Below, in pieces: positions 3,004 to 14,220 of a stretch of 22,711 nt of DNA. Position 1 is the first letter of the stretch, and each line of letters begins with the position of its first letter. Source of the DNA: Promethearchaeia archaeon. Lineage in GTDB: Archaea; Asgardarchaeota; Lokiarchaeia; Sigyniarchaeales; SOKP01. The notes beneath the pieces were generated by a model. The model had not been told where the DNA came from. It did no database searches and saw only the letters and a list, made by a program, of their open reading frames with translations. The stretch lies in assembly GCA_029856125.1 (NCBI GenBank), contig JAHQWJ010000116.1, positions 1 through 22,711 on the forward strand, written 5' to 3'. Made by a program: the position numbers and the translations under genes.

Positions 3004-3016
3004 GGTGATAAAAAAA

Positions 3017-3361
3017 ATGTCAGAAGGAAAAAATGTGGTTATCCTTTTACGGCAACCTCCTCATGGAACATTGTATCCTGTTGAGGGATTAAGAATGACG
3101 GTTGCCGTCAGTGGTGATTTTGAGCCAATTACTATAGCTATCAACGATGGTGTGTTTGCCTTTCTTAAAGACGTAGATAAAACTATGTATTCAATGCACA
3201 TCGATTTTATCAAAAATATCGATTTAGATATTTTTATTGATAAAAAGTCGCTTGACGAGCGTGGCCTTACAAAGGACGATTTAGTTGAACAGGTTGAAGT
3301 TAAAGAACATAGCGAAATATTAAAAATGATTGCGGATTCATCCGTAACCATACCATTCTAG
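3017..3361 (+). CDS. dsrF: DsrF/TusC-family subunit
   Basis: RQPPHG...EGLR, NDGVF, SLDERGL. ATG 3017 follows AGGTGA RBS (ORF track starts at GTG 3005). No Cys. Confidence 0.85.
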   Translation: MSEGKNVVILLRQPPHGTLYPVEGLRMTVAVSGDFEPITIAINDGVFAFLKDVDKTMYSMHIDFIKNIDLDIFIDKKSLDERGLTKDDLVEQVEVKEHSEILKMIADSSVTIPF

Positions 3362-4817: not shown

Positions 4818-4954
4818 ATCTCAGCAACAATCCTAGAGAATCCAATTCCTTCCTTATATATTATTCATAGTTTTGTGTTCATCCACCTTATCTATAAAAA
4901 AACAAAAATTATTTTTTTTTGCTTGTTCAGATAACTACTTTTCAAATGTACTCA

Positions 4955-5788
4955 TTAGTATTCCCCCAAGAATTGCTTTATTTTGGGGTTTTGAGCTAGT
5001 ATCTCCTTCATTTTTATCTTTGGATGGTTATATCTAGCCCTACCTAGAGTATATTCACCCCATTGAATAGCTATTTGGGGACAATAATGGAGACACGCTG
5101 TGCACATTTGACATCTATGCTGCCACTCAGGTTTTTCATTTACGAGTTTTATATTATCGACGGGACAGATTTGTTGACAAATTCCACAACCATTACAATT
5201 TTCATCTGTATAGTACTTTTCATCCATAGTATTTACTTCTTTTATAAAAGAGTAATAAGAATTCTTCATTGGGTAAATAGAACTTTCCCTTACCTTACCT
5301 TTCTGATTATTACGAATTATTTTAGCAATTTTTTCTATCTTTAATTCACCGTTCTTTATTCTCTTATCTCCTTTTTCTTTTGAAGGAACGGGATTCATTC
5401 GTTTTGATCCCCATATGTTATTTGAAAAAATTCTTATATTATATGCAGCATCAAGCTCTTTGTTTTTTGGTTTCAATAACTTTATCAGCACCGGCGATAC
5501 ATACTGCTTGGAAAAACCTCCCATAGTAGTAACAGCAAAAATATATTTTGCATTACTTAAATCTATCTTCTCAATAAAATCAGAGACAATTTTAGGGAGA
5601 GCCCAAGAATAAACTGGAAAAACAAAGCCAACTTTTTCTGATGTGGCGATTATAGAATCTTGTTTCATTAGACTCGCAATCGGTAGAAGTTCGCAATCAT
5701 CAAGTTTTTCTTTAAGACATTTGGCCGTATGTAATGAGTTTCCTGTGCCAGAAAAATAATATAGTGTTGTATTGATATTTTGAGTAAT
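4955..5788 (-). CDS. EFR1-type flavodoxin-ferredoxin fusion (2x[4Fe-4S])
   Basis: CNGCGICQQICP and CQMCTACLHYCP; VFPVY. The frame stays open upstream of ATG 5668 through TTLYYFSGTGNSL (FMN loop) to ATT 5788, with no ATG/GTG/TTG before the upstream TAA. Confidence 0.85.
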   Translation of the reverse strand: MTQNINTTLYYFSGTGNSLHTAKCLKEKLDDCELLPIASLMKQDSIIATSEKVGFVFPVYSWALPKIVSDFIEKIDLSNAKYIFAVTTMGGFSKQYVSPVLIKLLKPKNKELDAAYNIRIFSNNIWGSKRMNPVPSKEKGDKRIKNGELKIEKIAKIIRNNQKGKVRESSIYPMKNSYYSFIKEVNTMDEKYYTDENCNGCGICQQICPVDNIKLVNEKPEWQHRCQMCTACLHYCPQIAIQWGEYTLGRARYNHPKIKMKEILAQNPKIKQFLGEY

Positions 5789-5800
5789 TTTTTATCACTT
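5776..5800 (-). repeat. 25-bp RBS+ATT leader element, copy 1
   Basis: + strand tattttgagtaattttttatcactt; 23/25 identical to 7729-7753. Confidence 0.75.
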
Positions 5801-6002
5801 TTTTTTATAATGTTAATAATATAGTGATAGTTTAATTTTTATAATATTGTTAGTGTCAAAATTTTTAAGCATTATAAAATTAGTAAATTAATAATATAAC
5901 ATTGGAATCCCTTTCGTTTCGTTCCTTCATGCTGTGAACAAGGAAAGGTGATATTAAAATGTTAATAAATGAAATTGAGTAAAAAAAATTGGTGGATTCT
6001 CT

Positions 6003-6689
6003 TTGAGTATTGAAATTTTCCTATCTGGTTTTCTCTATCTGTTTATTTTGGTTTTGCAAATTGCGATGGCAGTATTTGGTTACATATTAGAGCCTACACC
6101 GAAGCATTATGAATCAGACGATAAACTGCTAAGTTTTAACAATAATCCAAAAAAGTTTCAAATAAGCGTCGTATTAGCGCTCATTGAACATTTTAGCGTC
6201 GTTACTCTTCCTATAGTATTGTTTATTGTTTTTAGTTCCTATAACATAATACTTGGAATTGTATGGATGATCTTCCGAATAGCAGAAGGCTTGATCCAAG
6301 TCTATATAGAAAAAGACTATTGGAGACTTCTCAATATAGCAAAAAAATACTCAATTAGTAGTGATGCGGAAAAGAATCCGTTGATTGATTCATATCATAC
6401 AATTCTCAAAGCAAAAAGCTATAGATTTACATTTGCAATGATCTGTTGGTCCATTGGTACTCTTGCATTATCAATCGTGTTAGTTACCTATGTATTAGCG
6501 GTACCCCCCTTTATCGGATGGTTAGGAATCGCTGCGAGCATTGGCATTGGTTTAGTTAATGTGGCAAAACTGGTAAAACCTAACTTAAAGGTTTATGACA
6601 CCGTCTCATCTATCTTTGGCATGTTGTCGATTGTATTTGAACTAATCATCGGAGGATGGCTAATATATTATTCGTTCATCATCCCTTAG
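6003..6689 (+). CDS. DUF4386-like multi-pass membrane protein, paralog 1
   Basis: 228 aa, about 6 TM; SGFLYLFI, RIAEG, P.FIGWLGIAAS, FELIIGGWL motifs shared with the two paralogs; TTG start. Confidence 0.7.
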   Translation: MSIEIFLSGFLYLFILVLQIAMAVFGYILEPTPKHYESDDKLLSFNNNPKKFQISVVLALIEHFSVVTLPIVLFIVFSSYNIILGIVWMIFRIAEGLIQVYIEKDYWRLLNIAKKYSISSDAEKNPLIDSYHTILKAKSYRFTFAMICWSIGTLALSIVLVTYVLAVPPFIGWLGIAASIGIGLVNVAKLVKPNLKVYDTVSSIFGMLSIVFELIIGGWLIYYSFIIP

Positions 6690-6701
6690 CTGATTTTTAG
6701 G

Positions 6702-6720
6702 AAAAAAAAATAAAAAAAAA
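6702..6720 (-). terminator. Oligo-T terminator between convergent genes
   Basis: A9-T-A9 on + strand, immediately after the MDR stop. Confidence 0.5.
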
Positions 6721-6721
6721 C

Positions 6722-7684
6722 CTAAATATGGTCTAGAGTTAATACTACTTGTCCCTTTTTCTGCCCGGATTCGATATACCTGTGAGCTTCAGATATCTGT
6801 TCCAACGGATAGCGTTTATCTATGACCGTCTTTAATTTTCCAGCTTCAATAAGTTCTTTAAGATAAATTAAATCTTCAGCTCTTTCTTCTAAGAGTCCAC
6901 TTACTGCTTTCTTGTTACTAAATACTCGAAGAGCCCGTCCCAACCCAAAGGTCGTAAAAACATAGAATCCCTCTTCCGTTAGCATTCTTTTGCTAGCTGA
7001 AAACGGACTCTTGCCTATCGTATCAAAAATAATGTCATACTTCTCGTCGCTTTTGGTAAAATCCTCTTTGGTATAATCAATTACTTTATCGGCTCCAAGA
7101 GACCTCACTAATTCTAATTTCGGGGTGCTGCATACTCCAGTTACTTTTGCCCCAAAGTACTTGGCAAGTTGGACTCCAAAAGTCCCTACCCCTCCCGATG
7201 CGCCAAAGATGAGAACTTTTTGTCCGCTCTGGATCTTACCCATTCTTAAGAAATACAATGCGGTTAAACCCCCATAAGGAATGGCAGTGGCTTCTTCATA
7301 TGTCATATTAGCGGGTTTTATTGCCACTGCCCCATCTTCAGGCATACATACGTATTCAGCATTAGCTCCCAAATTCATCCCGGTGAATCCAAAAACTTGG
7401 TCACCCTTCTTGAATAGATTTACATCTTTACCTACGGATTCAATTTCCCCAGCTAATTCAGTCCCAAGTATTGGTTTCTTTGGTTTTCTGAGTCCAGACG
7501 ATAATTTTATTAATAACCCAAATCCAGGAGGACCTGTGCAAGCTCTCCCCCAACAGTCGTATAATGTTGCTGTCGTCGCATATACTCTTATCAGTACTTC
7601 ATTGTCCTTGGGAGTTGGTTTTTCTACCTCCTTGACCTGAAGAACCTCCGGAGGTCCGTATTTTGAGTATACAGCCGCTTTCAT
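6722..7684 (-). CDS. Zinc-independent MDR (quinone-oxidoreductase-like) NAD(P)-dependent oxidoreductase, paralog 1
   Basis: [15 protein letters not shown]; GTELAG in place of the Zn-binding GHE; GASGGVG; LGADKVIDY; AHRYIESG. Possible 19-codon extension from ATT 7741. Confidence 0.9.
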
Positions 7685-7728
7685 AAAAGTTTCATGCTTA
7701 CCATCAATAGATTCCTCTTTATTTTTAA

Positions 7729-7753
7729 TATTTTGTGTAATTTTTTATCACCT
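7729..7753 (-). repeat. 25-bp RBS+ATT leader element, copy 2
   Basis: + strand tattttgtgtaattttttatcacct; minus strand reads AGGTGATAAAAA-ATT-ACA-CAA-AAT. Confidence 0.75.
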
Positions 7754-7963
7754 TTTATGTAATTAATTTTAATTCTTTATTTATTCTTAATCAAAAATTC
7801 AATAAATTTATTAGAATAATCATTAACTAATTCAAGTGATCCCTCATCTAAATCTCTAATAAAAAATATGAAAATAATTTTAGGAACACTTTACTCAATA
7901 CATCATTTAATACAAGTAACTATATCGCTCTATTAAGGAAAAAAAAAAATTTTTATTATTTAA

Positions 7964-8218
7964 TTATTCTTTGCCACGAATTAATTTAACCAAAAAAATT
8001 ACGAGGAAAATTGCTCCGATTGTGACACATATAACGGGAATCGCTTGAGAAACGAGCCCGATAATCAAACCTTCTGCTGTGCTAATAGAATCTAAAAAAT
8101 CCTGCCAGCTTAAAATAGTGGGCGAAGTCCATCCTAATAACGGCGGTAATACAAACATAGTTATTATAAAAATAACAACCAGAATTATTCCAATACTAAA
8201 TGCTGTCCATTTTTTCAT
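7964..8218 (-). CDS. Small 2-TM membrane protein
   Basis: 84 aa, two hydrophobic segments; GGAGG RBS; followed by a T11 tract (A-run 7939-7949). Confidence 0.7.
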   Translation of the reverse strand: MKKWTAFSIGIILVVIFIITMFVLPPLLGWTSPTILSWQDFLDSISTAEGLIIGLVSQAIPVICVTIGAIFLVIFLVKLIRGKE

Positions 8219-8281
8219 ACAAATCCCTCCGATAATTTATTTATTTTTCCAATATTTTATTTCAAATTAAGATTTTTCATT

Positions 8282-8295
8282 AAAAAAAAAAAAAA
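8282..8295 (-). terminator. Oligo-T terminator after ABC permease
   Basis: 14-nt A run on + strand, 5 nt beyond the stop at 8301. Confidence 0.55.
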
Positions 8296-8300
8296 TTATT

Positions 8301-9047
8301 TTACGCTTTTCCAAATCTCTTGAATATTACTGTTCCAATAATTACTATAACTATACTATAAACAGCTAAGACTCCTAAATTAATCCAAATAGTTATGTCT
8401 GTCAATGGAACACCATTAAAGATCATTTGTATTGAATTAGTAGAATAATAGATTGGAAAAAATATTCCTATTACTTGTGTAGCTTCTGACATTGGGATCC
8501 AAGTACCTAAAAGCATTTGTGGCATGAAAAATATCATTGATACTCCCACAGCAGCTCCAGAGCTTTTTGCGAATGTTGCAGAGATAAGACCAAAACCAAC
8601 AGATGATAGCGCTAGGAATCCTACAAACGCAAATGCTAATAAAAAGCCCGAAGACCTAATACGAAAGCCTAGTATTAAAGCTAACCCCGTTATAATTGCT
8701 ACTTGTAAGAGAGATATTAGTATATTAGCGATTACATGACTTCCCATAAATTCTCCGGATGTTGTAGGTGTGGTATTCATTCTGTCGAGTAATCCATCTT
8801 TTCGGTAGTCAGTAAACGCCATAGCAACAGTCATGACGATATATACACACGTAAACCCATATATCCCAGGTATCATGAAATCAAAAATACTGACTCCAGG
8901 GGTGGAGGTGGGAGTATCTGACAAAGCTAACCCAAATGTTAGAGTTAATATTACAGGCAATAATATCAAAGAGAAAAGATAAGTTGGATCTCGTATCAGT
9001 TTTTTAAGTTCCAATTTTAACAGTGCCATAGTTCTTTGTAAATTCAT
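8301..9047 (-). CDS. ABC-2 type exporter permease
   Basis: 248 aa, 6 TM; ELKKLIRD, FMIPGI, R.DG.L.R..TP, LLG.W.P motifs; 2 nt from the ATPase gene. Confidence 0.9.
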   Translation of the reverse strand: MNLQRTMALLKLELKKLIRDPTYLFSLILLPVILTLTFGLALSDTPTSTPGVSIFDFMIPGIYGFTCVYIVMTVAMAFTDYRKDGLLDRMNTTPTTSGEFMGSHVIANILISLLQVAIITGLALILGFRIRSSGFLLAFAFVGFLALSSVGFGLISATFAKSSGAAVGVSMIFFMPQMLLGTWIPMSEATQVIGIFFPIYYSTNSIQMIFNGVPLTDITIWINLGVLAVYSIVIVIIGTVIFKRFGKA

Positions 9048-9049
9048 TT

Positions 9050-9850
9050 TTAAAGCCCCTCCGTAATTCTTCTACCTGTAATTTTTAAAAATACTTTCTC
9101 TAAATCTTCTACATTGTGTTTTTCCATTAATTCTTTAGGCGTACCAGTATCGATCAACTCACCAAAATCAATAATAGCAACGTGATCACTAAGAGCTTCT
9201 GCTTCCTCGATATAATGGGTTGTCAAAACAATAGTTTTTCCTCTCTCCTTAAGAGAACCGATAAATTCCCAAGTTTTTCGACGTACTCGTGCATCCATAC
9301 CCACCGTAGGTTCGTCAAGAAATAGAATATCTGGGTCCCCAATTAAGGCCATCAACATATTAATCTGACGCAGCATTCCACCGCTATAACCCTTTGCTTT
9401 TCGCTTGCTTTGTTCTGTAAAATCTGTTGCTTCTAAGAGCTCATTGGTTTTCTCTTTTAACACCTTTTTATCTAGTGCATGGAGATTTCCATAAAGTTCA
9501 ATATTTTCTCGTCCTGAAAGAAACTTATAGATAGCTGCTTGTTGAGGGCAAACACCAATCAATTCTTTGATCTTATTAAGATCATTCCTTACATTATACC
9601 CTCCTACATAAATTTCACCGCTCGTCGGTTTTAATAGACCAATCATCATTTTAATAGTCGTAGTCTTCCCCGCACCATTTGGTCCTAATAAACCAAATAT
9701 TTCACCTTTATTTATCTTAAAAGAAATATCTTGAACGGCCTTTACATCATCGAAATGCTTTTTTAGATTTTGAACCTCAATTGCTATATTGTTAGAACTT
9801 CCTTTTTTCAAATCAGATTCTTCTGAAATTGTCATTTTTTCATCACTCAT
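9050..9850 (-). CDS. ABC exporter ATP-binding protein (DrrA-like)
   Basis: Walker A GPNGAGKT, signature YSGGM, Walker B ILFLDEPT, H-loop LTTH. Confidence 0.95.
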   Translation of the reverse strand: MSDEKMTISEESDLKKGSSNNIAIEVQNLKKHFDDVKAVQDISFKINKGEIFGLLGPNGAGKTTTIKMMIGLLKPTSGEIYVGGYNVRNDLNKIKELIGVCPQQAAIYKFLSGRENIELYGNLHALDKKVLKEKTNELLEATDFTEQSKRKAKGYSGGMLRQINMLMALIGDPDILFLDEPTVGMDARVRRKTWEFIGSLKERGKTIVLTTHYIEEAEALSDHVAIIDFGELIDTGTPKELMEKHNVEDLEKVFLKITGRRITEGL

Positions 9851-9852
9851 AT

Positions 9853-10065
9853 TTAATTATTTTTTGTTTTATTTATCTTGTACCATAATAATCCATAATT
9901 TAACGCTGGACCCGCAATTGTAATTACAAGTGATATGATAAAGAACGCTAAGTTTGGAGCGTTCATCCAATAAATAGGCCACATAATTATCAATACGACG
10001 ATCCATATCCCCAAAATTACCCAATTAATTTCTTTATATGTTGGGGATTTTTTTGTATCACTCAT
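9853..10065 (-). CDS. Small 2-TM membrane protein, first gene of the ABC operon
   Basis: 70 aa, two hydrophobic helices; stop lies 2 nt from the ATPase start. Confidence 0.7.
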   Translation of the reverse strand: MSDTKKSPTYKEINWVILGIWIVVLIIMWPIYWMNAPNLAFFIISLVITIAGPALNYGLLWYKINKTKNN

Positions 10066-10346
10066 TTTTATTGTTTTTTTATTTTTTTTTGTTCGGTTTT
10101 TTTTTGTTTAAACCTATTTTATATGAAAATTATTGCCCAAAATTAAATTTATCGATAATATCCTATAACCTTGCGCATTATGAATAAATATTCAATTAAA
10201 AAAATGTAAAAATACTTGGTCAATTAATCAACTAATCTAAATAATCTAATAACAATAACATTAGACTAAAAAGAAGTTATTTTTTCAAAATTCACTTCTT
10301 TTACAAAAATAAAAACAAAGATTATTATATAGAATTAGAAAAAACA

Positions 10347-10502
10347 CTATTTAGGAACTATAGTTATTACTACATTTCCCTTTTTGTGTCCTTTTTCGAC
10401 ATATCTGTGAGCTTCTACTATTTGTTCCAATGGATATTTTTTATCTATAGCTGATTTAACCTTTCCAGTTTCACAGAGTTCTTTGAGAAAAATTAGATTC
10501 AT
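10347..10502 (-). pseudogene. C-terminal 51-aa stub of a fourth MDR oxidoreductase
   Basis: Not in the ORF track: [51 protein letters not shown], matching the C-termini of the three intact paralogs. Confidence 0.85.
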
Positions 10503-10605
10503 TTTTTTATGTTTTATTGGTAATTTTAATAGATTATTTTTTTATTTAAAAATAATCATTTTTTGGCTAAATTTAATACAGATTCGCGTTCTAATAAAAG
10601 AAGGT

Positions 10606-10866
10606 TCACAAATTTGGAAAAAAAATATTCAACGGAAACTTATTGCCTTTAGATAGAAGGAAAGGTAATTTTCCATCGAAATAATCAGAATATAAAATAA
10701 AAAACAAACAACCTAAAAAATCAATAAAATCCTCATTTTTATTCTCAAATGAATATATATTGGAACTTAAAATATCAAAATTTTTTCCAATTAGTTGAAA
10801 TTTGGGAAAACAACCAGCTCTTTTTTTTTCATTTTGTTCTAAGTAATTGATCAAGCCAACAATCAT
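10606..10866 (-). CDS. Hypothetical protein or fragment
   Basis: 86-aa ORF co-oriented with neighbours; no motif recognised. Confidence 0.35.
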   Translation of the reverse strand: MIVGLINYLEQNEKKRAGCFPKFQLIGKNFDILSSNIYSFENKNEDFIDFLGCLFFILYSDYFDGKLPFLLSKGNKFPLNIFFPNL

Positions 10867-10922
10867 AATACTTTGCTGATAAAAAAATAAAAAAAATTAT
10901 TTTTTGATTTTAGAAATAAATT

Positions 10923-11288
10923 CTAGCTTCCTTTATTTTTAGCGCTTAACTTGATTATTCCTCCAGATAATACCCCAAACACAATAGTAAGGGAAATGGC
11001 AACAACGAGGAACATCATATTGCTTGGATCGAGTAGTGCGTAAGCAACCCAAACGACTCCTATAGCTGCTCCAAATAACCAGCCAATTACTTCTTTAACA
11101 TCAACTTCCTTTTTGCTTAACGCAATAAGTCCACCAGATACTGTACCCAACAATATTGTTAGGGAAATAGCTACAACGAGAAACAACATATTTCCTGCTC
11201 CGAGAAATGCAAAAGCTATCCAGACGACTGCTATAAGTGCGCCTAAGAGTTCGCCAATTAATGTTTTAGAATTATACAAATTTTTCAC
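10923..11288 (-). CDS. 4-TM membrane protein built from an internal tandem duplication
   Basis: Two ~57-aa units, each IG.L.GA.I.VVW.A.A.L...NM.FLVVAISLTI..G..SGG.I.LS. Confidence 0.75.
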   Translation of the reverse strand: MKNLYNSKTLIGELLGALIAVVWIAFAFLGAGNMLFLVVAISLTILLGTVSGGLIALSKKEVDVKEVIGWLFGAAIGVVWVAYALLDPSNMMFLVVAISLTIVFGVLSGGIIKLSAKNKGS

Positions 11289-11450
11289 TTTTAAAATTAT
11301 TTTTTTTAATTTAATTTTAAATTAATTCATTAACAATTATATAGATTGGGAATCTAATAAGAGAGACAACAAAAGTGGAAAAAAATTTGTAGTGAATATT
11401 AGCTATACTTAACTAAAAGGAATGGATATGCATAGGGAAAGGATGTAACA

Positions 11451-11597
11451 TTAAAATAATCTTTTTAATTGTTGAAGTTCTTCAGAACTGACTTGCTGTG
11501 GTGTTTTTATTTGAGCATTCAGAACTTTTGCGAAGACTTTAGCGATCTTCTCAGTATTATTATGATGATAAGAAAATAAAACTAAAAGCGATTTCAT
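11451..11597 (-). pseudogene. Flavodoxin-family N-terminal stub
   Basis: Not in the ORF track: MKSLLVLFSYHHNNTEKIAKVFAKVLNAQIKTPQQVSSEELQQLKRLF*. S..H.NTEKIA is an FMN-phosphate loop; similarity ends before the G.GS.IY strand. Confidence 0.75.
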
Positions 11598-11650
11598 TAT
11601 TATTCTTCCAATCTGCTAGGTTTCGTTATTTTATGGGACAGTTTTATTAT

Positions 11651-11667
11651 TTTTTTATGTAAATTAT
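11651..11667. repeat. 17-bp direct repeat, copy A (copy B 12364-12380)
   Basis: ttttttatgtaaattat, exact at both positions, bracketing the 11669-12340 gene. Confidence 0.7.
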
Positions 11668-11668
11668 T

Positions 11669-12340
11669 TTAAAAAAACAACAGAAATATCCCGATGATTA
11701 CTTCAAATGAAATCGCCGACAGACCACCTACAATTAATAGGACTCGAAAGCTAGTTTTTGTTTTAAGGTTAGGTTTTTTAAGTCCTATCACATTATCTAA
11801 GCCAATTAAAATACTGGCAACAATACCTAACCATCCAATAAAGATGGGTGCCACTCCATAGGTAATTAAAACGATTGAAAATGCAAGATTACCAATGGTC
11901 CAAAGGATCATAGCAAATTTGAATCTAGAGCCAATTGCTTTGGTAGTGGTACGAGCTAAATCAATCAACGAACTTTTTTCGGCGCTATCACTACTTGAGT
12001 ATTTTCCTGCTATTTTGAGAAAACTCCCGTAGTTTTTATCATTAGAGATTAGGATCAAGCCTTCTCCTATTCGACAGATGAGTAGAACAATTCCAAGTAT
12101 TATGTTATATGGAGGACCAAAAACTAAAAACAGTGTTATAGTAAGAGTAATGACGCTTACATTATGTATGAGCGCCAACACGAGCGTTAGTTGAAATTTT
12201 TTTCGATTCTCGTTAATCCTTTGTAGTTCAGCTTCAAAATCACTTATTTCTACTTTATAACCTAATACTGGTTGAATTACGACGTATAAAACTAGTATAA
12301 ACAGAAAGAGAAAACCAGCTAATTTTATTAGGATAATCAA
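11669..12340 (-). CDS. DUF4386-like membrane protein, paralog 2
   Basis: 223 aa; [31 protein letters not shown]; TTG start. Confidence 0.7.
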   Translation of the reverse strand: MIILIKLAGFLFLFILVLYVVIQPVLGYKVEISDFEAELQRINENRKKFQLTLVLALIHNVSVITLTITLFLVFGPPYNIILGIVLLICRIGEGLILISNDKNYGSFLKIAGKYSSSDSAEKSSLIDLARTTTKAIGSRFKFAMILWTIGNLAFSIVLITYGVAPIFIGWLGIVASILIGLDNVIGLKKPNLKTKTSFRVLLIVGGLSAISFEVIIGIFLLFF

Positions 12341-12363
12341 AGGGAATACTCCACATTGCTGTA

Positions 12364-12380
12364 TTTTTTATGTAAATTAT
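12364..12380. repeat. 17-bp direct repeat, copy B
   Basis: Exact match to 11651-11667. Confidence 0.7.
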
Positions 12381-12402
12381 ATTGTGTAATTTTTTGTCAT
12401 CT
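12378..12402 (-). repeat. 25-bp RBS+ATT leader element, copy 3
   Basis: + strand tatattgtgtaattttttgtcatct; 22/25 identical to copy 2. Confidence 0.7.
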
Positions 12403-13566: not shown

Positions 13567-14220
13567 TTAATAAAAAAACAATAGCCATCCTCCCAAGACT
13601 ACTTCAAAAATCAAGATTAACAGCCCTCCTAAGCTCCACAGGATTTTAACGTTAGGTTTTACTCGAAATATCCCGTTACCGAAGCCATAGAGAATGCTAG
13701 CAATAATTCCAAACCATCCAATAATTGATGGTACAACTCCATAAGTAACAAACAGGATTGAGTATGCGAGTGTACCTATGGAGAATAAGATTTGTGCAAA
13801 TGTGAATCGAGACTCTTTTGTATTAAGAATGCTGCGACCTAAATCAATTAATGTATCTCTTTTAGCACCACTAGTATCTGGGTATTTTATTGCTAGATCG
13901 AGGAGTCCCCAGTAGCTTTTTTTATCATAGATTTGGATCAAGGCTTCTCCTATTCGAGAGATAGCCCAAACAATTCCTAGTATTATGTTATATGGGCTAA
14001 AAGCAAGAAACAATGTTACAGCAAGAGAAATTATGCTAAAGTGTTCTATGAGGATTAGCACGAAACTAATTTTAAATTTTTTTGGATCGGTGTTAATCTC
14101 TTGCAGTTTAGCGTCTGAATTCAAATCACTAAATGTTTTATAGCCAAATTTACCACTTGTAATGTTTGTAATTATAATAAACAGAAAGAGAAAACCAGAT
14201 AACTTCGCTTCGATAATCAA
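13567..14220 (-). CDS. DUF4386-like membrane protein, paralog 3
   Basis: 217 aa; [33 protein letters not shown] start overlaps the upstream MDR TGA (TTGA). Confidence 0.7.

Follow-up and report, generated by a model that had tools for sequence, protein, structure and literature searches.

Where does translation begin when three unrelated reading frames are preceded by one and the same element, and that element carries ATT at the place where a start codon is expected? The question is posed by a contig of 22,711 nucleotides from a Promethearchaeia archaeon (JAHQWJ010000116.1; "the window" below means this whole stretch), on the minus strand of which a first-pass annotation had pointed to three near-identical 25-bp elements, each reading as a ribosome-binding site (RBS) followed by ATT, and had proposed non-AUG initiation, a leader grafted onto different incoming genes, or both. 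Among known lineages, Asgard archaea stand closest to eukaryotes, and their initiation factors are of the eukaryotic type. The best explanation, which we consider probable on the strength of sequence comparison, is that each copy constitutes a full translation initiation region with an AUU start, and that the element has spread within one gene island. The three copies, in which a Shine-Dalgarno (SD) motif, a spacer, and ATT can be distinguished, are the following:

5775..5800, minus strand: leader copy 1, with GTGAT (5798-5794), a five-A spacer (5793-5789), ATT (5788-5786), and then Thr-Gln-Asn codons.
7728..7753, minus strand: leader copy 2, with GGTGAT (7752-7747), a five-A spacer, and the ATT start (7741-7739).
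12377..12402, minus strand: leader copy 3, with ATGAC (12400-12396) replacing GTGAT, a five-A spacer, and ATT (12390-12388).

The elements are present as claimed (5776-5800, 7729-7753, and 12378-12402), the other two 25-mers agreeing with copy 2 at 23/25 and 22/25 positions. A 24-mer from copy 2 (7728-7751, minus strand) is found again at 5775-5798 with a single mismatch, where dinucleotide shuffles lead one to expect 0.00 matches, and the corresponding segment of copy 3 (12377-12400, minus strand) differs from copy 2 at 4/24 positions. In a repeat search of the window, the three copies form one family (D12) that is 31 nt long; the part reused before the three neighboring, unrelated genes, which comprises the RBS and ATT, measures 22-25 bases. 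When both strands of the whole assembly (3.69 Mb in 153 contigs, 32.7% G+C) were scanned, no further copy appeared at ≤3 mismatches, and at ≤5 mismatches the only convincing copies were these three. Could an AT-rich genome, a common SD motif, and A-rich spacers have made the copies alike by chance? GGTGAT followed by a run of As is indeed a generic SD and spacer in this genome, as seen at dsrF and MDR2, but the shuffle expectation, the restriction to three copies in 3.69 Mb, and the excess of matches in the order as a whole (37, compared with 4 in a control; see below) all speak against chance, as does the finding that 0/205 SD-led ATG genes have Thr-Gln at residues 2-3, so that the N-terminus shared by the copies is an uncommon one. 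Chance resemblance is thereby already refuted for the island genes and is possible for a ubiquitin-like gene alone; as an account of the three copies we give it practically no weight.

The 16S ribosomal RNA (rRNA) of this genome is archaeal and has the 3' end GGATCACCTCCT, so GGTGAT is a perfect SD sequence. ATT follows at a gap of 5 nt behind GTGAT in copy 1 and GGTGAT in copy 2, both of which are complementary to the 16S 3' end, and the pairing is weaker in copy 3 (ATGAC). Counted from the A of GGTGA, ATT sits 6 nt downstream, which is the commonest spacing among the ATT candidates of the genome (16/47; see below) and lies inside the range seen for ATG. The parallel drawn in the first-pass annotation with dsrF holds good, GGTGAT and a run of As being followed there by ATG, and the ATG of MDR2 is preceded by GGAGAT and an A-rich spacer similar to the leader. 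The dsrF-like gene itself is listed as starting from GTG 3005 (window 3005-3019, plus strand), a GTG that lies inside the stretch of GGTGAT, A run, and ATG; the ATG four codons downstream is the more likely start.

The gene behind copy 1 gives the most direct view of the ATT codon:

4955..5788, minus strand: gene for an EFR1-family ferrodoxin (flavodoxin-like and 4Fe-4S domains), 277 aa when read from ATT.

As had been noticed earlier, the ATT at 5788-5786 is in the EFR1 frame; TAA stands two codons upstream, there is no ATG, GTG, or TTG ahead of the flavin mononucleotide (FMN) loop, and between the TAA and the conserved core one finds only AAA and ATT. The NCBIfam profile NF038196 matches the ATT-started protein with 243 bits, profile position 1 falling on residue 9, and the Pfam Flavodoxin_5 alignment likewise begins at residue 9, while the next ATG (5668) would be residue 41, past the FMN loop. 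EFR1 orthologues of other genera (G080, G111, G125, G136, G126, and G143 in our numbering of genomes) share the 6-nt spacing, and the extra A is therefore neither a sequencing error nor the mark of a pseudogene; in these orthologues the GTG frame is shut after 7 codons, and in G143 the position of ATT is taken by ATC. Two other roles for the sequence at this gene were rejected. ATC at 5776-5774 does not qualify as the EFR1 start, given its excessive distance from the SD and the AAT, AAC, or ACC found at this site in orthologues; and if the element served as TATA box or core promoter, transcription would begin only within the conserved N-terminus. As an observation on the locus, G007 (L058, G007:C45) is without the segment of EFR1 and DUF4386 paralogue 3 at this place (window 4873-6702) and has ~3.5 kb of other DNA there.

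At copy 2 the element adds an extension to a protein that also has an internal methionine:

6722..7741, minus strand: MDR1, a zinc dehydrogenase of the quinone-oxidoreductase type, whose N-terminus is longer by 19 residues when read from ATT; no SD precedes the internal ATG (7684).

In agreement with the earlier reading, the ATT at 7741-7739 is in frame with MDR1, 19 codons upstream of ATG 7684. The family profile opens at the internal Met, and it is for the extension only that a canonical start is missing ahead of the conserved part. The spacers of the orthologues read AAGAAA in G007 (protein 98% identical), GAAAAA in G014, A6 in DZ1B.338, and A5 in G011; of the five MDR1 orthologues compared, GTG is out of frame in four, and ATT is in frame in all five, 19 codons ahead of the usual Met of the family. 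More distant relatives have extensions of 6 or 14 codons that are still in frame, and the bin108 orthologue has an 18-residue extension, upstream of the same Met, that is begun by a normal SD and ATG. This in-frame variation in length, together with the SD and ATG of bin108, argues that the extension is translated. The relatives of the MDR1 protein come from metagenome-assembled genomes labelled Promethearchaeota or Candidatus Hodarchaeota. Between G007 and the window, the DNA of the MDR1 gene is 95% identical, and the leader has diverged much more than the gene body.

A different start has to be considered at this point, namely the GTG within GTGAT (ATG in copy 3), with the sixth A of the leader explained as a sequencing error, as a recent frameshift that made EFR1 a pseudogene, or as the site of a programmed +1 frameshift or of transcriptional slippage. 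Such a start finds some backing in the forms whose spacer is 1 nt shorter and in which GTG is in frame (G003, G004, and G022 for EFR1, G011 for MDR1, and G032 for the ubiquitin-like gene), as well as in the ATG at that position in copy 3. However, the 6-nt spacing occurs without a homopolymer in independent assemblies (AAGAAA in G007, GAAAAA in G014 and G080, AAAGA, AAATA), which leaves neither a homopolymer error nor a slippery run; in six EFR1 and about ten MDR1 orthologues the gene is intact, the GTG lies in another frame, and that frame ends after 7 codons; and no SD is seen ahead of the GTG. Programmed +1 frameshifting of the prfB type was rejected in its own right, the sequence being AGA-A in G007 and AAA-A in G014, with 5-nt forms that need no shift and no stop at the shift site. 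Comparison of the sequences has largely refuted initiation at GTG already, and we regard it as very unlikely. Across the orthologues, for which the first-pass annotation had proposed a comparison of ATG with ATT, the spacer measures 5-6 nt and carries several substitutions, ATT never leaves the frame of the gene, and a spacer with the sixth A is the common state. Other start-type codons seen at the ATT site are ATC (EFR1 of G143), ACG (the ubiquitin-like gene of this genome), and ATG (the MDR1 extension of bin108), and ATT is, from these alignments, the only candidate start common to all orthologues compared.

The same GTG or ATG might instead be translated as the leaderless 5' end of an overlapping open reading frame (ORF) of 7-8 codons that modulates the use of ATT. 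The GTG frame in the 6-nt forms nearly always closes after 7 codons, ATG stands there in copy 3, G014 and G080 have gained an in-frame ATG as second codon, and the transcription start suggested by the promoter region (see below) is close to that G. Against this, the short frame comes automatically with the shared sequence, is absent from the 5-nt forms and lost in L166, where it runs to 32 codons, and bears no independent sign of selection on the peptide, and we consider a functional ORF of this kind improbable.

If ATT is the start codon of the leader, how common is it elsewhere? We counted codons located 3-9 nt behind an SD-type motif that are closely preceded by an in-frame stop, open an ORF of ≥100 codons, and have no canonical start within 8 codons. 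In this genome, the counts are 158 for ATG, 47 for ATT, 34 for TTG, 19 for ATA, 16 for GTG, and 14 for ATC, compared with 10, 13, and 5 for the control codons of similar abundance AAT, TTT, and TAT, several of which adjoin an ATT or ATC. ATT is enriched behind SD sites in the genome-wide check that had been called for, and the peak spacing of the ATT candidates is that of the leader. When ten of the candidates were compared with Pfam, eight had a profile starting at residues 3-14, with the next canonical start 20-98 codons downstream; the domains of these eight include Ras, ApbA, TatD, AFOR_N, RuBisCO_large_N, and ATP-synt_D. Comparative frames, the genome-wide SD enrichment, and Pfam and NCBIfam profiles that open upstream of the next canonical start thus all favor the non-AUG initiation proposed at first, and it is from sequence, frames, conservation, and genome- and order-wide statistics that we infer it. 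One correction has to be made to the original proposal: ATT initiation is not peculiar to the three genes but appears as a genome-wide habit of the lineage. An unusual initiator transfer RNA (tRNA) was rejected, the sole initiator-like tRNA having a normal CAU anticodon (ARAGORN found few tRNAs in this genome). Other SD-led near-cognate starts were seen on contigs of G000 (C82:28861-29361, C102, C124, and C84:65324), the examples being an S4-domain ribosomal protein with an apparent ATC start, two small GTPases with ATA and ATC, and a short-chain dehydrogenase with CTG. In addition, a look-alike of the leader with a 5-nt spacer and 2 mismatches (G000:C112:104479-104499), located in the same genome as the window, precedes a 473-aa condensation-domain protein, in frame at ATT.

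The A6 form of the leader, searched at ≤2 mismatches, gave 37 matches in 32 of 154 genomes from the order, compared with 4 for the reversed-pattern control. At 29 of the 37, ATT is in frame with a recognisable gene; the other eight have core mismatches and no gene behind them, and their number is about the control level. The genes behind the leader encode EFR1, MDR with an extension, a GNAT acetyltransferase, an ABC ATPase, a membrane protein, a ubiquitin-like protein, and DUF4386, which in G099 is joined to the leader directly. The 5-nt form was rejected as a separate conserved element, with 16 matches against 19 in the reversed control at 2 mismatches; only its matches with 0-1 mismatch are real. 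With the exception of the ubiquitin-like gene, the leader sites lie among homologues of window genes (membrane proteins of 121, 84, and 70 aa, the ABC-2 pair, MDR, DUF4386, and EFR1), and the leader is thus a feature of a single shuffled island of genes. The ubiquitin-like gene of this genome has ACG and a different spacer ahead of the same Thr-Gln-Tyr, and its likeness to the leader may be partly coincidental. The idea of a reused cassette, also put forward at the outset, gains support from the presence of the same leader ahead of at least six gene families, mostly of one island, across genera.

As to a vehicle for such reuse, Pfam detected no transposase or integrase in the window, and a 17-bp AT-rich direct repeat was seen around DUF4386 paralogue 2. 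An integron-like cassette array was rejected, there being no integrase in the window and the repeat at the 5' end of the units being promoter-like. The 121-aa protein of the window (10923-11288, minus strand) is an internally duplicated membrane protein without a Pfam match, with conserved counterparts in the island in several genera; its gene probably starts at TTG 11279, behind AAGTGA.

The third copy stands before a very short reading frame, and its surroundings can be compared with two other DUF4386 junctions:

12337..12390, minus strand: mini-ORF of 17 codons from ATT, whose TGA (12339-12337) overlaps the TTG start of DUF4386 paralogue 2.
11669..12340, minus strand: DUF4386 paralogue 2, with a TTG start, predicted to be coupled to the mini-ORF.
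14217..14220, minus strand: TTGA in which the stop of MDR3 overlaps the start of DUF4386 paralogue 1; copy 3 retains this junction, which is seen here in intact form.
5945..6005, plus strand: leader of DUF4386 paralogue 3, with AGGTGAT, an ATG mini-ORF (5959-5982, stop at 5980), and the same GGTGGAT...TTGA junction at TTG 6003; an ATG-led counterpart of copy 3.

The ATT at 12390-12388 does open 17 codons, as first reported, and their closing TGA overlaps the TTG start of DUF4386 paralogue 2 at 12340. The last codons of the mini-ORF match the 3' end of MDR3 and hold an SD-like GGAG for this TTG, and the TTGA overlaps characteristic of termination-reinitiation are found both here (12340-12337) and between MDR3 and DUF4386 paralogue 1 (14220-14217). 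In G007 the orthologous mini-ORF also has 17 codons and the same TTGA overlap, and its leader resembles the MDR1 leader of G007 itself for ~35 nt. The simplest history for copy 3 would be an MDR-DUF4386 pair whose MDR lost its interior, leaving the leader and the coupling junction; all three DUF4386 genes stand behind an upstream ORF or its remnant.

Some further traces of rearrangement were seen around this gene. The 17-bp AT-rich direct repeat that flanks DUF4386 paralogue 2 is exact (12364-12380 and 11651-11667, minus strand), with its upstream copy within the mini-ORF, and could be due to chance. Removing the 713-bp unit of DUF4386 paralogue 2 in silico yields a 25-codon ORF that ends beside the ATG of a flavodoxin-like stump (11597). 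This stump (11451-11597, minus strand) retains 48 codons from the beginning of a flavodoxin-like gene and is one of two in the window; in the other (10347-10502, minus strand), which lies behind a degenerate promoter repeat, 51 codons from the end of an MDR gene are left.

The promoter repeat became visible when the regions upstream of the leaders were aligned, as a unit of ~65 nt made up of a T run, GTGAACATG, the palindrome GCTCT-TATT-AGAGC, CCCAAT, and a TATA-like box. Relatives (L232, L233, L234, and L236) have several per contig, ahead of many island units and irrespective of whether these are ATG- or ATT-led, and near-identical DNA precedes non-homologous genes for ABC, MDR, DUF4386, EFR1, flavodoxin-like, and small membrane proteins. 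In relatives, the TATA-like box and the SD or element are mostly 21-31 nt apart, and the transcript would probably begin at about the first base of the leader. This genome has two copies only, both before genes other than those led by the element, and none was found ahead of the three leader copies of the window:

11345..11363, minus strand: promoter repeat core (palindrome and CCCAAT, then a TATA-like box) of the 121-aa membrane-protein gene, with 2 mismatches to the consensus 19-mer.
10582..10600, minus strand: degenerate promoter repeat, with 4 mismatches, ahead of the MDR stump 10347-10502.

The promoter repeat looks like a regulon promoter with an operator, which raises the question whether the element itself is mainly the binding site of a shared regulator. 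It could be an operator in the DNA where transcription starts, or one in the RNA that covers the SD and start codon and is bound by a protein or a small RNA; the island units would then form one regulon, and the regulator, in addition to descent, would hold the copies identical. The element is confined to one island across genera and is near-identical before non-homologous genes; in relatives it follows the strongly conserved promoter repeat with its 5+5 palindrome, which shows some level of co-regulation among the units; with 21-31 nt between TATA and element, transcription is likely to start at the first bases of the element; and the two copies of G007 share an A-to-G change in codon 4. The variation that is tolerated nevertheless fits an SD, a spacer, a start, and a coding sequence, consisting as it does of spacer substitutions, a 1-nt indel, three wobble bases in the Thr codon, and Asn, Tyr, Asp, Ser, or Lys at codon 4. 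Moreover, the element is weakly palindromic, and the indel would shift half-sites; no complementary sequence is present elsewhere in the genome at ≤5 mismatches, no gene for a regulator turned up in the island, and outside the island the element is found at the ubiquitin-like gene. We therefore rate a role mainly as a regulator site as possible, though unlikely. A gathering-threshold Rfam search of the window returned no known RNA family, and a regulatory RNA structure was rejected, the folds of the three leaders being equal to those of shuffles (z = -0.7, +0.3, and +0.4) and the hairpin over SD and start lacking compensating changes.

Returning to initiation at AUU within the leader, several observations weigh against it. 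The SD of copy 1 is limited to GTGAT with an A before it, and the ATGAC that stands for GTGAT in copy 3 weakens the SD pairing yet keeps a start codon in the other frame, as would fit the overlapping 7-codon ORF. In the close relatives G003, G004, and G022, the shorter EFR1 spacer makes the in-frame GTG a possible start. The sequence of the MDR1 extension is poorly conserved, and the third frame of the MDR1 leader of this genome is open as well, so that the case for translation of the extension rests on the conservation of frame across relatives. Finally, the TATA-like box of the window copies, which is homologous to that of the relatives, is just 8-10 nt from the element, and it is therefore uncertain which promoter is in use, and the SD might not be transcribed.

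In the mechanism that we propose, (G)GTGAT would pair with the 3' end of 16S rRNA, and, after the 5-base A spacer, AUU would be read by the initiator tRNA, followed by the Thr-Gln-Asn/Tyr codons. Copy 1 would start the EFR1 ferrodoxin, copy 2 would start MDR1 with its 19-residue extension, and copy 3 would start the 17-codon mini-ORF, from which terminating ribosomes could restart on DUF4386 paralogue 2 via the overlapping TTG. The leader would be part of a rearranging gene island that comprises an ABC-2 exporter, MDR, DUF4386, EFR1, and small membrane proteins, and most likely spread there by deletions and recombination, through which the body of one gene came to stand behind the first four codons of another, and it would have been retained because it is functional. 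Both this route and the coupling at copy 3 are suggested by the arrangement of the sequences. The identity of the leaders most likely goes back to descent by recombination within the island, and a shared regulator is a further possibility.

Parts of this arrangement have precedents. The AUU and AUC starts of bacteria (infC and pcnB of E. coli; PMC5499595) are similar in that a near-cognate AUU at a normal distance behind an SD serves as initiator; in E. coli, however, AUU is known from two genes and from the autoregulation of a factor (infC by IF3), whereas here it is found in an archaeon with eukaryote-type factors, before redox enzymes and membrane proteins, and among SD-led genes its frequency is close to that of UUG. 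For the Asgard tubulin atubA, a 2026 paper proposes a rare ATT start, the deposited protein being N-terminally short and an upstream ATT plausibly spaced from an RBS restoring the first beta strand (PMC13394414). The two cases have in common an Asgard gene, a truncated deposited N-terminus, and an upstream ATT, but atubA is a single case described as rare, as opposed to a shared leader and a genome-wide count. Putative mobile promoters (PMC3575422) resemble the leader in placing very similar upstream DNA before non-homologous genes within and between genomes; the piece reused here differs in including the RBS, the start codon, and three codons, which gives a shared N-terminal tag, and in belonging to one island, with no insertion sequence or transposase in the window. 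Overlapping stop and start codons are known to couple translation by termination-reinitiation in archaea and bacteria (PMC6728339), and copy 3 has the same overlap; unlike in known coupled pairs, its upstream partner is a remnant-like, 17-codon, AUU-started ORF instead of a full gene, and the coupling is a prediction.

It is conceivable, if rather doubtful at present, that the AUU leader and the ~65-nt promoter repeat together act as a portable expression adaptor of a cassette-like island, supplying a common promoter, 5' end, AUU start, and Met-Thr-Gln tag, such that the set would respond together to start-codon stringency (the level of aIF1) or to a leader-binding regulator. The promoter repeat marks a compact, shuffled island of an exporter, quinone-reductase-like enzymes, a ferrodoxin, and DUF4386 proteins that is probably switched on as one response. 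For annotation, the consequence is that gene finders restricted to ATG, GTG, and TTG drop the FMN loop of EFR1, the extension of MDR1, and the whole mini-ORF, with dozens of genes in the genome likewise affected; for the lineage at large, frequent SD-guided AUU starts in Asgard archaea would bear on the evolution of start-codon choice.

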